Origin: Escherichia coli
GTDB taxonomy: Bacteria > Pseudomonadota > Gammaproteobacteria > Enterobacterales > Enterobacteriaceae
Strand: one strand, 5' to 3'
DNA: 64,000 bases
NCBI RefSeq assembly: GCF_011045215.1
Contig: NZ_CP049201.1
Part shown: piece after piece, positions 40,195-64,000 of the stretch
Position numbering within the stretch: position 1 is the first letter of the stretch
How the letters are laid out: every line of letters begins with the position of its first letter
Notes under the pieces: model-generated
Told to the model about the DNA's origin: nothing
The model's input: the letters and a program-made list of their open reading frames with translations, nothing else
Databases searched by the model: none
Made by a program: the position numbers and the translations under genes

Positions 40195-40200
40195 GATTAT

Positions 40201-40238
40201 AAGCGCATGTTATTGTTTAACATGCGCTTTTTTATTTT
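40201..40238 (+). terminator. Rho-independent terminator immediately 3' of the tRNA (approximate)
   Basis: AAGCGCATGTTA-ttgtt-TAACATGCGCTT followed by TTTTTATTTT. Confidence 0.7.
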
Positions 40239-40343
40239 CCCTTTCAGACAGTATGCCATCGGGTATGCCATCTGAAACCGGTTTATATGCCCCGCGATCA
40301 TATCTTATCGGACAATTTCCGATCTTTGAGCATACTGGCAAAG

Positions 40344-41186
40344 CTATACTGCCAGCATATCAGGATAGTGTTTTGCGATAATATCATTCAGTCTGTCAAC
40401 CAGTTCTGGTTTTCTGAACGTGATATGCGCGGAGCCCTTCTTAAAATATCTGATGCTGAACATCTCATCTTCATAGTCCTCTTTACCCTGAACAGACTGG
40501 ATGTGATCATCCAGACGAAGGGTGATGTTTTCCCGGGTGTCGGGGATCGGTTTGCCGCTGAACAGATGCAGCATTCTTTCCAGATCGGCAAGTCTATCTG
40601 CCTGTTGCCCGCTGTTCAGATGAAATCCCCACCGGTCCCATCTCACCAGATTGTTGACGATAATTTTACTGCCAAATTTGCAGGGTGAATTGGTTTTGTA
40701 ATTCCAGCTCAGTCCCCTGAAAACGTTGATCACCCCTCGCTCAAACACTTCATCTTTGTTCTGGTGCAGTTGTTCAAACGTGCTCAGGATATTCGCTTCG
40801 CTGATTTCCGGAAAATTATCGTACTCCAGTGACCGGTACCATGTATCACGGGCTTGTGCATCCATTAATGACAGCATCCCTGAACGTTGCATCAGGTCAC
40901 GCCAGATTTCGCGGTCAAGGTTGCGGGTGATGGCTTTCATTGCGGTTTCCGGTTTCTCCATGAGCCAGCAGCCACAGCGAAAATCCTGTTTCATGGCCCA
41001 GTCCAGTGCGGTTTTACCTCCAATGCTTTCCGTCAGCACCGAGATTTCTGCCAGTTGCCGGATAAGCGTGTCGATTTGCAGCAGTGTACTTTTTCGTACA
41101 GCCAGAATGTGGCGGATACTGGTTGAGCAGATAACGTCCGTATGCCCGTTGACAACTTCCGGACGAGAGGCTGTGATATCAGACAT
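40344..41186 (-). CDS. Hypothetical protein, tentatively DUF4942-like, at the edge of the CP4-like module
   Basis: 280-aa ORF with no recognisable catalytic motif; first island gene after serW. The DUF assignment is from recollection, not a domain search. Confidence 0.55.
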   Translation of the reverse strand: MSDITASRPEVVNGHTDVICSTSIRHILAVRKSTLLQIDTLIRQLAEISVLTESIGGKTALDWAMKQDFRCGCWLMEKPETAMKAITRNLDREIWRDLMQRSGMLSLMDAQARDTWYRSLEYDNFPEISEANILSTFEQLHQNKDEVFERGVINVFRGLSWNYKTNSPCKFGSKIIVNNLVRWDRWGFHLNSGQQADRLADLERMLHLFSGKPIPDTRENITLRLDDHIQSVQGKEDYEDEMFSIRYFKKGSAHITFRKPELVDRLNDIIAKHYPDMLAV

Positions 41187-41282
41187 AATCGATATTCCTT
41201 TTTGCAGATAAATGAAAACGCCAGCCCTGTTCAGGCTGGCGTCAGTGGAATGAAGTCTGGTGAGTGAGATGATGAGTGAAAC

Positions 41283-41480
41283 TCACCGGTTCGGGGGCTG
41301 AAGCTGCAGTTGGCGCAGGGTACGGATATCCTCCCTGGCCTGTTCAATACAGGACAACAGGGCTGTCGAATCCGTTTTATCCTCATCGTTGTCAAAGATA
41401 ATTCCGGATTCACAGTCGATATTGTCCTGCAGCCACGCAATCAGAATATCCAGTGCGGTTTCCGTGGTTAATGATTTCAT
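41283..41480 (-). CDS. Small hypothetical protein (CP4-like module)
   Basis: ORF 41283..41525; the probable start is the internal MKSLTTETALDILIAWLQDN..., which avoids overlap with the upstream gene. Confidence 0.35.
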   Translation of the reverse strand: MKSLTTETALDILIAWLQDNIDCESGIIFDNDEDKTDSTALLSCIEQAREDIRTLRQLQLQPPNR

Positions 41481-41491
41481 GTTGTTCCTGG

Positions 41492-61612: not shown

Positions 61613-62248
61613 CTACTTATTACCAGTAAGCAGGGCCTCACGGTCTGCAGGACTTAACGCCAGATACCGCATGAGCCGGGACATACTCAGGCCCGTAACT
61701 TCGCAAATCTGTGGTCGTGTTATTGTTGGTAGCTTGTTCTGCGCATCAATAATTTCCAGAAGTTCTGATTTCTTCAGTGGTTTTTTTGTCCGCCGTACGT
61801 TGATAATCAGTCGCCCTTCAGCAATATCCCGGATGCGCTGCACTTCATCTTCGGACATTGAAAGATAATACCGGGCTGTCCCCCGATTCAGCCCGAGATA
61901 ACGGGCAATTTTTATCCTGTTCCAGCCCTTGTCCTCCAGTGCACGCATAATCTGATACAGCCGCCATCTACGCTGCGTGTCTGGTATATCCCGTCCGTTC
62001 GGACAGAAATGTTCAATAACCTCATCAACAGTAGCCATATCCCGCACTTCTTCATTAACGAGCGCCTGAACGTCATTCTCTGGCATGGCCAGCCAGCGTT
62101 TCATTGTTGACACAGATACGTCGAATTTTGCACATAAGTCTCCCGGTAATATCCGGGGATTATCGGCATACGCCTGACGCAGTGCCTGTATTACATGTCC
62201 TTCACCGGGTTCTTTGCAAGATGGAATACGCATAACATTCTCCGACAA
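61613..62248 (-). CDS. Hypothetical HTH-containing protein (211 aa)
   Basis: HTH-like segments (DVSVSTMKRWLAMPEND; RIKIARYLGLNRGTARYYL); third gene of a tightly packed three-gene cassette. Confidence 0.5.
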   Translation of the reverse strand: MSENVMRIPSCKEPGEGHVIQALRQAYADNPRILPGDLCAKFDVSVSTMKRWLAMPENDVQALVNEEVRDMATVDEVIEHFCPNGRDIPDTQRRWRLYQIMRALEDKGWNRIKIARYLGLNRGTARYYLSMSEDEVQRIRDIAEGRLIINVRRTKKPLKKSELLEIIDAQNKLPTITRPQICEVTGLSMSRLMRYLALSPADREALLTGNK

Positions 62249-62281
62249 TAAGAACAGTTCGCTTTTCCTGTTAAGAAAACG

Positions 62282-62524
62282 TTATTTAAGTCCCTGCCTT
62301 AAGTGTTTTGCTTCTTCTTCAAGAAGCGTCTGTAACTCCCGTTTCACATCAAGTCTCTCAAGTTTGAGTATCACGACTTTCATGGAATATCCTCCCCCAA
62401 AATCAGTTTCAAGTCTGGCTATCTGGCGTTCAAGCGAGCAATACTGACTGTATAATCTGTCAAAATGTTGGTGTCTGCCTTTCAGGGTGGACATTACATC
62501 ATGATACTTAAGGAACATATTCAT
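62282..62524 (-). CDS. Hypothetical small coiled-coil protein (80 aa)
   Basis: Start overlaps the stop of the upstream 145-aa ORF (4-bp overlap at 62521..62524), suggesting translational coupling. Confidence 0.4.
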   Translation of the reverse strand: MNMFLKYHDVMSTLKGRHQHFDRLYSQYCSLERQIARLETDFGGGYSMKVVILKLERLDVKRELQTLLEEEAKHLRQGLK

Positions 62525-62958
62525 TTCTCCATGGTCTTACATGAATTATTGTATGCCCCGTCCATTACAAAATTATTTATCAACTCACGTAAAACCACCT
62601 TTTGTTCATTATCCTGAGCATACTGAATCTGGCATTCAATTTCGTCTACAGTCAGTCTTATATCAGATTCATTAATTATTTCCGTTATTCGTTTTCTCAG
62701 ATATTCAGGCTGGCCTTTCGTGTTTCGTAAAACAAGACAGAATAACATGTCATAAAGGGCACAATGCCATGAATAACCATCATTGGTTAAAATAAGTCCC
62801 CAAACCTGCTCCGCAATAAGCTGCAGAATAAAGGATTCAGCCTGTTCTGTTTGTCCGGGAGCAACACGGTATAGCGGAGCAATCACAGCAAAAAACAGTT
62901 CATTTAACCAGGATTCCACCTCCTGCGTATTACCGTGAAGGAGATCGGTGAGTAACAT
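62521..62958 (-). CDS. Hypothetical protein (145 aa)
   Basis: First gene of the cassette; starts within ~50 bp of the end of the adjacent IS21-family element. Confidence 0.45.
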   Translation of the reverse strand: MLLTDLLHGNTQEVESWLNELFFAVIAPLYRVAPGQTEQAESFILQLIAEQVWGLILTNDGYSWHCALYDMLFCLVLRNTKGQPEYLRKRITEIINESDIRLTVDEIECQIQYAQDNEQKVVLRELINNFVMDGAYNNSCKTMEK

Positions 62959-63008
62959 CGATGGAGATCGGTTCGTGTCACTTTCACAGAACCGTTTTTA
63001 AATTACCT

Positions 63009-63758
63009 TCACTGATCTCCTTCGGTCAACGGAGATTGTATTTTCCGCATTGATTCTCCTTTAAGTTCGATCTTGATACTGCCATGAACCAGTCGATCTA
63101 GGATGGCATCCGCATGTGTGGAGTCTCCGATCATTTTGTACCAGTTTTCCACCGGCAACTGGCTCACTACGATGATTGAGCCTCGTTGGTACATCAGATC
63201 CACTATTTCCAGCAGGTCGCTACGCTGTTCTGATGAGAGAGGTTCCAGCCCCCAGTCATCCAGAAGCAGCAGATCGCTATTATTCAGCCTGGTCAAAAGT
63301 TTGCTGTATCTTCCATCAGCATGCCCCTGATAGCACTGTTCCATCAGCGCTTTAAGGCGATAATAGTAGACCTTGTATCCCTGTCGGCAGGCATTATGAC
63401 CAAGTGCACATGCCAGGAACGTTTTACCGCTGCCGGTGGCCCCGGTCAGTAAAATATTTTGTTTCAGGGTTAACCAGTTTCCCTGACTGAGTGAACGGAT
63501 GAGGGCCCTGTCCAGCCCTCTATTGTTACGATAATCCAGCTTTGATAACTCAGCATTAAGTCTGAACCGTGCATGTTTGATCAGACGCTCTGCCTTCCTG
63601 TTTTCACGGCAGGTTAGTTCTTCTGCTGTCAGTAATGACAGGCGTTCTTCGAAGCCCAGCTCCTGGTATGTGCCCGGCTGAGCAAGTTGCTTTTTAAGCG
63701 CATCACGGAAGCCGGTGAGTTTAAGTGCGGTCAGTTGTTCGTAAAGATGATTCATCAT
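63009..63758 (-). CDS. istB: IS21-family helper ATPase IstB
   Basis: 249-aa ORF with Walker A GATGSGKTFLA and Walker B LLLLDDWG. Confidence 0.9.
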   Translation of the reverse strand: MMNHLYEQLTALKLTGFRDALKKQLAQPGTYQELGFEERLSLLTAEELTCRENRKAERLIKHARFRLNAELSKLDYRNNRGLDRALIRSLSQGNWLTLKQNILLTGATGSGKTFLACALGHNACRQGYKVYYYRLKALMEQCYQGHADGRYSKLLTRLNNSDLLLLDDWGLEPLSSEQRSDLLEIVDLMYQRGSIIVVSQLPVENWYKMIGDSTHADAILDRLVHGSIKIELKGESMRKIQSPLTEGDQ

Positions 63759-64000
63759 TGGATCCCGTATCAGTGGTAATACTCACTGCCGCGTACGTTT
63801 TCGTGTTCCATCGTGGATAACAGATCTGGTTTTGGATCCTGAACAGGTTGTTTATCCAGACCTTTTTCCAGGATCGATTTAATACCTGACAGACGCCATA
63901 CCTTTGTTTTCAGAGCTCTTGCACATGCTGCATTAAGTCTGGCTTTACTGTATTTTTTATGAAGGTTCAGGAGTCCAAGGCAGAAGCGATAGCTTTGTTC
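63755..64000 (-). CDS. istA: IS21-family transposase IstA, C-terminal fragment (runs off the window end)
   Basis: Inferred from the canonical istA-istB overlap arrangement and the open frame upstream of istB; not individually translated here. Confidence 0.5.

Follow-up and report, generated by a model that had tools for sequence, protein, structure and literature searches.

The tRNA-proximal end of a genomic island at serW in Escherichia coli: a probable integrase-distal arm of the serW/serX island family

Why should a genomic island inserted at a tRNA gene have no integrase beside that gene? The question is raised by the window, a stretch of 64,000 nucleotides of E. coli DNA, in which accessory DNA begins at the 3' end of serW. 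A first-pass annotation proposed that the integrase and the duplicated att site probably lie beyond the end of the window or that the island is rearranged. The comparison set used here was 5,426 complete RefSeq E. coli genomes.

The junction at serW

The gene order cydD-cydC-aat-infA-serW matches that of K-12, and the similarity of the window to K-12 breaks off exactly at the CCA end of serW, position 40194 (Table 1). This confirms both the placing of an island at the 3' end of serW and the claim that aat-infA-serW core synteny stops at the tRNA. ARAGORN found one tRNA gene in the window, this tRNA-Ser(GGA), and the insertion lies precisely at its 3' end and leaves it intact. In K-12, clpA does follow serW, as the earlier annotation expected, 343 bp past it and on the opposite strand. 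All of the DNA from 40195 to 64000 is accessory: a CP4-type module, Ag43/Cah and a GTPase are followed by IS481, IS630, IS3 and IS21 sequences together with AT-rich cargo, a description already given in outline and borne out by the open reading frames, profile matches and GC content. Most genomes in the comparison set match the window only as far as serW, and the infA-serW-DUF4942 junction was found in only 277 of the 5,426.

The last 14 bp of serW, CCCCCTCACCGCCA, form the att core and occur as a single copy in the window. The match of this tRNA-side copy is trivial since it is part of serW itself. The native sequence downstream of serW is TATTTAAAGAAGAGCTCG.

Table 1. Features of the window around serW and in the island.
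Feature	Position	Strand	Basis or remark
cydD	35116-36882		Upstream of serW
cydC	36883-38604		Upstream of serW
aat	38646-39350		Upstream of serW, followed by infA
serW, tRNA-Ser(GGA)	40107-40194	+	ARAGORN; identical to K-12 serW; intact integration target
14-bp att core, tRNA-side copy	40181-40194	+	Reverse complement of published repeat
Rho-independent terminator, hairpin and T-tract	40201-40239	+	Terminator scan; island-supplied, replaces native serW terminator
Doublet GTATGCCAT-N3-GTATGCCAT	40251-40271	+	Candidate arm-type binding site
DUF4942 protein	40344-41186	-	ORF; last island gene, adjoins tRNA; homologues in C5, 1303, strain 148, C21
DUF957 protein	41283-41480	-	ORF; collinear with C5 and 1303 annotation
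DUF5983 (YeeW-like) protein	41492-41980	-	ORF; annotated in relatives
CbtA-family toxin	41977-42351	-	ORF; annotated in relatives
YeeU/CbeA-family type IV antitoxin	42444-42812	-	ORF; annotated in relatives
DUF987 protein	42887-43108	-	ORF; annotated in relatives
RadC/JAB-domain protein	43177-43668	-	TIGR00608 RadC, 149.5 bits (cutoff 133.85)
Antirestriction (KlcA/ArdB-like) protein	43669-44154	-	ORF; annotated in relatives
DUF932 (YfjQ/YafZ-like) protein	44246-45064	-	ORF; annotated in relatives
IrmA-family protein	45339-45794	-	ORF; annotated in C5, 1303
840-aa conserved hypothetical	45870-48392	-	ORF; present in C5, 1303
Ag43/Cah autotransporter adhesin	48507-51431	-	NF033177, E = 0, 1973 bits (cutoff 1200)
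YeeP/YkfA-like GTPase	51728-52639	-	GTPase family matches; inner limit of conserved CP4-type module
IS481-family transposase	53263-54234	-	NF033577, 261.8 bits (cutoff 224)
AT-rich cargo block	54599-57730	-	GC 0.34-0.38; collinear with C5 up to 57772
371-aa orphan ORF	54599-55714	-	In AT-rich cargo
PapB/FocB-like regulator remnant	about 55641-55981	-	In AT-rich cargo
EAL-domain protein	56798-57730	-	In AT-rich cargo
AraC-family (YdeO/GadX-like) regulator	57834-58475	+	NF007407, E = 9e-50, under curated cutoff
IS630 fragment, then YfdX-gene fragment (mosaic debris)	58634-59415		Matches IS630 transposase and YfdX loci in part (megablast)
IS3-family element	59462-61029	+	orfA 59462-60004, weak (24.3 bits); orfB 60208-61029, NF033516, 169.4 bits (cutoff 160)
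Fragment of a different island: 82-aa ORF, HTH protein, DUF465 protein, truncated hypothetical	61144-62958	-	
IS21-family ISEc12	63009-64000	-	istB 63009-63758, NF038214, 270 bits (cutoff 200); istA runs off window end; ISEc12 annotated in matching records

The 150 bp of island DNA beside the tRNA is approximately 99% conserved across serW and serX islands. It carries its own terminator, with a 12-bp stem and a T run, and the hairpin at the same position in K-12 differs. The GTATGCCAT doublet occurs once in the window, against 0.01 occurrences expected by chance; its distance from the tRNA-side core, measured into the island, is 57 bp. In strain 1303 and in O157 the same doublet is present in the same orientation about 22 bp upstream of the start of the far-end integrase, about 120 bp from the far-end core. 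The paired doublets could be arm-type sites of the SRL/OI-43-type integrase or of its directionality factor, a tentative reading of the sequence to which we give slightly less than an even chance. Were it true, the att arm at the end seen in the window would still be functional, and occupancy of the att sites would autoregulate the integrase promoter region.

The whereabouts of the integrase

Searching the window by tblastn with the integrase of the strain 1303 island gave no homologue (best E = 2.6), thus the reported absence of an integrase at the tRNA-proximal end stands. Nor does the serW 3' end recur in the window, the tRNA itself being the sole match to a 25-mer (3 mismatches allowed) and to a 14-mer (1 mismatch allowed). 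An absence beside serW is to be expected because the integrase of serW/serX-family islands normally lies at the far end, by clpA. In the serW islands of strain 1303 (∼58 kb) and strain C21 (42.8 kb) a tyrosine integrase adjoins clpA, and the last 14 bp of serW recur as a direct repeat between the two genes. Both copies of the repeat were seen in C21, and far-end copies were seen in 1303 and O157. The integrase also adjoins clpA in RIVM_C036204, and in the O157 serX island it is at the ycdU end with the 14-bp direct repeat between integrase and ycdU. The integrase-repeat-clpA junction is present in 223 of the 5,426 genomes. When compared with phage genomes by tblastn, the island integrase showed 35-40% identity to P2/P4-like phage integrases only.

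The published data on OI-43/48 describe the same layout: the repeat of 14 bp is TGGCGGTGAGGGGG, the end at clpA/ycdU has an integrase of the P4 family and serW/infA is opposite; excision of these islands has been measured in O157 (PMC3064760). The SRL-PAI shares these 14-bp direct repeats and has an integrase almost identical to theirs (PMC3064760). Its excision needs that integrase, and its target is serX, with serW a suspected alternative site (PMC7545054). As the integrase-distal layout is the norm for the family, and is also that of CP4-6 at thrW in K-12, the suggestion that the island is rearranged is unnecessary to explain the tRNA-proximal end. By analogy with these relatives, this strain probably has its integrase and second core copy beyond position 64000, next to clpA. 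Their loss is unlikely, though the heavy IS load makes it a real chance.

The DNA from 40195 to 64000 is very probably the integrase-distal arm of a serW/serX-family island inserted site-specifically in the last 14 bp of serW. It is an ordinary E. coli island and has its backbone in common with the rest of the family, which includes OI-43/OI-48 of EDL933, SpLE1 of Sakai and the SRL-PAI of Shigella. This placement is supported by the junction falling exactly at the CCA end, by the gene order and orientation of the family and by the conserved 150 bp with its own terminator. As published for the relatives, a P4-family tyrosine integrase would recombine the 14-bp core of the circular element with the identical 3' end of tRNA-Ser(GGA), keeping the tRNA intact and duplicating the core at the opposite end of the island. 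Because of the way the core is oriented in attP with respect to the integrase gene, the integrase would then lie on the clpA side, beside the copy of the core that was displaced, so that the intact tRNA abuts the last gene of the CP4 module, which runs toward the tRNA in the order GTPase, Ag43, DUF932, antirestriction, RadC, YeeU/CbtA and DUF4942. The island may be complete and mobile, its integrase end lying outside the window.

The main competitor is an immobile remnant, an island that entered serW and subsequently had its integrase end and second 14-bp repeat removed or displaced by IS deletion or rearrangement. At least five IS-family sequences are present within 11 kb (IS481, an IS630 fragment, IS3 and ISEc12) together with fragments of unrelated loci, and the arrangement beyond 57772 occurs in no complete genome. 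Given this unique IS patchwork, loss or relocation of the far end by IS is plausible, and loss of the integrase-side end of OI-43/48 by IS recombination is documented in O157 strain 95S (PMC3064760). The integrase-repeat-clpA junctions (223) are also fewer than the serW-DUF4942 junctions (277), which suggests, from two separately made genome lists, that approximately one fifth of such islands are without the standard integrase-clpA junction. However, most relatives retain the integrase by clpA, for example 1303, C21 and RIVM_C036204, and the window shows no sign of a missing far end; we consider a remnant improbable, but worth bearing in mind.

Much less probable is that the integrase once lay beside serW and was moved off by an internal inversion that brought the CP4 module to the tRNA. 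Some CP4-type elements do have their integrase directly beside the target RNA gene, for example CP4-57 at ssrA in K-12, and such elements explain why an integrase was originally expected on the tRNA side. However, the serW/serX-DUF4942 junction of 150 bp is ∼99% identical in independent lineages and at two tRNA loci, complete examples have direct 14-bp repeats and a far-end integrase, the published map of OI-43/48 agrees (PMC3064760) and K-12 CP4-6 has the same polarity. An identical inversion would have to have recurred in every case. The conserved junction at two tRNA loci and the direct repeats effectively refute an inversion. There is almost no probability left for the view that this is not an island and that the genes after serW stand in the order of the species core genome, which would have overturned the first-pass annotation. 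At 40-52 kb the GC content (0.47-0.58) is indeed near the core value, but the junction count of 277 in 5,426 refutes this view, K-12 and most genomes having clpA straight after serW.

In the serW/serX family, the lack of an integrase beside the tRNA does not point to rearrangement, and island callers and readers should therefore check the clpA side for an integrase and the 14-bp repeat. Apart from correct annotation the importance is slight.

Conserved module and inner cargo

The tRNA-proximal end has the conserved form of the family, with the non-coding arm followed by the genes from DUF4942 to Ag43 and the GTPase, each of them antisense to serW. The CP4-type module is represented by the GTPase, DUF932, antirestriction, RadC, DUF987, YeeU antitoxin and CbtA toxin genes, and the K-12 genes yafZ and yfjQ have the same position as the DUF932 gene of the window. 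At serW this tRNA-proximal module also occurs in C5, 1303 and C21, and an O157-like strain has it at serX; the module of the window is collinear with those of C5, 1303 and strain 148. The 840-aa protein gave no significant NCBIfam or Pfam match. Among the genes carried by the island are those for a CbtA/YeeU toxin-antitoxin pair and for an adhesin of the Ag43/Cah type.

In many genomes collinearity with the window stops at approximately 52713. Beyond this the GC content falls to 0.34-0.43 (53-59 kb), and no complete RefSeq E. coli genome covered at least 80% of 39100-64000 or of 52000-64000. Past 57772 the patchwork of IS fragments in the window is unique among the complete genomes, and the junction of the AraC-family regulator with its flanking DNA was found in none of the complete E. 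coli genomes searched. The fragment at 61144-62958 had a match of at least 80% coverage, among complete genomes, in C5 only, at an unrelated locus by PerC and type I restriction-modification genes. The same PerC/type I restriction-modification context recurs in draft genomes; exact matches to the DUF465 protein came from many genomes, in an island context other than this one, and the 206-aa HTH protein had exact-protein matches in two metagenomic contigs only, each shorter than 1 kb. As a whole, the 52.7-64 kb cargo is a mosaic shaped by IS elements and has no evident coherent function. Scrambled by IS and with no full match in 5,426 complete genomes, it illustrates how tRNA-Ser hotspots gather and shuffle accessory DNA.

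Comparison with known islands

The tellurite-resistance and adherence island of E. coli O157:H7, OI-43 at serW and OI-48 (SpLE1) at serX, is similar to the window in several respects. OI-43 is inserted at the serW 3' end, with infA-serW on one side and clpA on the other, its core being the last 14 bp of the tRNA, and the DUF4942, CbtA/YeeU, RadC, antirestriction, DUF932 and Cah/Ag43 genes are at the tRNA-proximal end of OI-43/48. The difference is in the cargo. No ter, iha or urease genes were found among the open reading frames of 40195-64000, although they could lie past the window, and the visible 23.8 kb has another, IS-rich mosaic instead. The visible cargo is unlike that of O157 and is not that of OI-43/48 in the strict sense, for which the ter/iha/urease cargo is needed. 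The likeness to the SRL-PAI, which was compared by description only, comes via the published repeats and integrase of OI-43/48. Neither the SRL multi-resistance locus nor fec genes were found in the visible 40195-64000, which in this part differs from an SRL-PAI in the strict sense (SRL and fec).

The closest relative is C5, collinear with the window to 57772, while 1303 is collinear from 39100 to 52713, serW to the GTPase gene; these stretches are 92-97% identical to the window. The islands differ in cargo, 1303 having CdiBA, type I restriction-modification and DarTG and C21 having glycosyltransferases, and the window is without a 645-bp gene between YeeU and DUF987. The serW locus of C5 exceeds 80 kb, a prophage being nested in it and another CP4 module lying there in inverted orientation, and C5 is thus a poor template for the far end of this strain.

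CP4-6 (thrW) and CP4-57 (ssrA) of K-12 have other target genes and integrases and no Ag43, but their module order is the same, from the GTPase through DUF932, antirestriction, RadC and DUF987 to the antitoxin-toxin pair. CP4-57 has the opposite polarity to the window, intA adjoining ssrA. CP4-6 is like the window, its toxin end being beside thrW with the integrase, intF, at the far end.

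The serW junction

The only tRNA gene in the window (ARAGORN) is a tRNA-Ser(GGA) gene at 40107-40194 on the plus strand, identical in sequence to K-12 serW. Upstream of it lie ORFs matching cydD, cydC, aat and infA in size and order, and those of the window's first 40 kb upstream of cydD are likewise of a size and order that fit core genes. In K-12, serW has its own terminator downstream, with clpA lying at 343 bp on the opposite strand. Beyond the CCA end the window reads GATTATAAGCGCATG... where K-12 reads TATTTAAAGAAGAGC..., thus synteny breaks exactly at the tRNA 3' end. The first-pass annotation had placed an island here and this placement holds, since likeness to K-12 stops at 40194.

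Of the 5,426 complete E. coli genomes, only 277 matched at >=80% coverage a probe running from infA through serW to 400 bp beyond it. The match stops at the tRNA in most of the 5,426, K-12 among them, and in a second group it runs from the tRNA onward with infA unmatched; in strain 148 such a match is the paralogous serX locus, ghrA-serX. The gene order downstream of serW is therefore not species core and this DNA is accessory, as had been claimed.

The 150 bp from the tRNA to the DUF4942 stop codon show ~99% identity among serW and serX islands, above the 92-97% of the adjacent genes. At the far end of the 1303 and O157 islands, a GTATGCCATCGGGTATGCCAT doublet in the same orientation as that of the window (Table) lies ~22 bp before the start codon of the integrase gene. 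These doublets are candidate arm-type protein-binding sites, which would flank the core in attP.

The integrase end of the island

No homologue of the family integrase was found in the 64-kb window, nor does the tRNA 3' end recur in it; the lack of an integrase at the tRNA-proximal end had already been noted. In E. coli 1303, where the serW island is ~58 kb, a 402-aa tyrosine recombinase directly adjoins clpA; CCCCCTCACCGCCA, identical to the final 14 bp of serW, is sited between the two, and native K-12-type serW downstream sequence comes after it. In strain C21 the two 14-bp copies are direct and separated by 42.8 kb; the integrase lies immediately inward of the one on the clpA side. The O157:H7 serX island has the same layout, its integrase adjoining ycdU. 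The integrase-repeat-clpA junction was present in 223 of the 5,426 genomes, and RIVM_C036204 is both among these and among the matches to the window island. The published islands OI-43 (serW) and OI-48 (serX) of EDL933 have perfect flanking 14-bp repeats, TGGCGGTGAGGGGG, equal to the last 14 bp of serW/serX and identical to the SRL-PAI repeats, with a P4-family integrase at the clpA/ycdU end and serW/infA at the opposite end; for their excision by recombination between the repeats, measurements gave about 10^-3 to 10^-4 (PMC3064760). SRL-PAI needs its integrase for excision (PMC7545054).

Given the counts of 223 and 277 and the three inspected relatives, the integrase end is quite probably still present in this strain. 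From 52.7 kb on the island is AT-rich (GC 0.34-0.43) and full of IS, and it is conceivable, if rather unlikely, that it is an IS-eroded, immobile remnant. Rearrangement, which the first-pass annotation had offered as the other explanation, was rejected: serW/serX islands normally carry the integrase at the tRNA-distal end (1303, C21, O157, OI-43/OI-48), and K-12 CP4-6 has this layout too. The absence of an integrase beside serW is the expected architecture and not an anomaly. The island is real and of a known, published kind, and the earlier reading was otherwise essentially right.

An integrase-proximal module is conserved between 1303 (19702-26673 of its locus, L004) and C21 (36109-43067 of L021). 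Along with the integrase it encodes a DUF3987/YfjI-like protein, a small AlpA-like HTH protein, an inovirus Gp2-type protein and a 607-aa hypothetical. In O157 the integrase and the HTH protein are shared together with a 605-aa hypothetical, and YfjI-family and short DUF3987 ORFs are also present. This module may be the source of a directionality factor for the family.

Content of the island

Every gene within 40344-52639 lies on the minus strand, directed at the tRNA; identities in this CP4-type module rest on NCBIfam matches and on how collinear relatives are annotated in RefSeq. The 840-aa ORF had no significant Pfam or NCBIfam match. A 645-684 bp 'hypothetical' gene found between the YeeU antitoxin and DUF987 genes in C5, 1303 and C21 is absent from the window (42834-42849).

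Features of the serW island, in window coordinates
Feature	Position	Strand	Remarks
Strong hairpin + T-tract	40201-40239		in place of native serW terminator
GTATGCCATCGGGTATGCCAT doublet	40251-40271		single in window; 0.01 occurrences expected by chance
DUF4942	40344-41186	-	
DUF957	41283-41480	-	
DUF5983	41492-41980	-	
CbtA-family toxin	41977-42351	-	
YeeU-family antitoxin	42444-42812	-	
DUF987	42887-43108	-	
RadC/JAB	43177-43668	-	
Antirestriction protein	43669-44154	-	
DUF932	44246-45064	-	
IrmA-like protein	45339-45794	-	
840-aa hypothetical	45870-48392	-	between IrmA-like gene and Ag43; kept in C5 and 1303
Ag43/Cah	48507-51431	-	NF033177, 1973 bits against cutoff of 1200
YeeP-like GTPase	51728-52639	-	
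IS481 transposase	cargo from 52.7 kb		
PapB-like regulator remnant, EAL-domain protein	AT-rich cargo from 52.7 kb		
371-aa orphan ORF	54599-55714	-	hydrophobic N-terminus
AraC-family regulator	57834-58475	+	YdeO/GadX-like; E = 9e-50, under curated cutoff
IS630 and YfdX gene fragments	after AraC-family regulator		
IS3 element	cargo from 52.7 kb		
1.8-kb piece of other island type	61144-62958		82-aa ORF, 206-aa HTH protein, DUF465 protein, truncated 222-aa hypothetical
ISEc12	up to and beyond window end		

The whole island reached >=80% coverage in no complete genome; the closest match, bovine strain C5, is collinear to 57772. The context of the AraC-family regulator is contiguous in no complete E. 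coli genome, and the 1.8-kb piece reached >=80% coverage only in C5 among complete genomes, though its context is common in draft assemblies. The cargo mosaic is strain-specific and no coherent new system is evident. The 1.8-kb piece normally forms part of another island, where its neighbours are PerC, type I restriction-modification genes and T6SS remnants; in the window it is cut by ISEc12.

The 371-aa ORF matched nothing in NCBIfam, and nothing in Pfam with the threshold relaxed to E <= 10; its product may be an uncharacterised surface protein. Its surroundings are very AT-rich with strong negative GC skew, the PapB/FocB-like regulator remnant is directly upstream and the EAL-domain gene is nearby. 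The C5 chromosome carries two copies of this trio, and the C5 plasmid NZ_CP010123.1 also carries the regulator and the EAL gene. The C5 serW locus (L009, NZ_CP010122.1 3795000-3844900) is more than 80 kb long. In it are a nested fragment of a lambdoid prophage, genes for CdiA-like toxins and another CP4-type module facing the opposite way, a make-up suggestive of tandem or nested insertions at this hotspot.

Polarity compared with K-12 CP4 elements

The conserved CP4-type module is shared with K-12 CP4-6 and CP4-57. CP4-type elements have a constant internal polarity (integrase, cargo, GTPase, DUF932, antirestriction, RadC, antitoxin, toxin), whereas the end adjoining the intact target gene varies between integrase/att families. 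The layout thus follows from the orientation of the core in attP relative to the integrase gene and is not a rearrangement. In CP4-57, intA adjoins ssrA, whereas in CP4-6 the toxin end adjoins thrW with intF 34 kb off, and the serW/serX family has the polarity of CP4-6.
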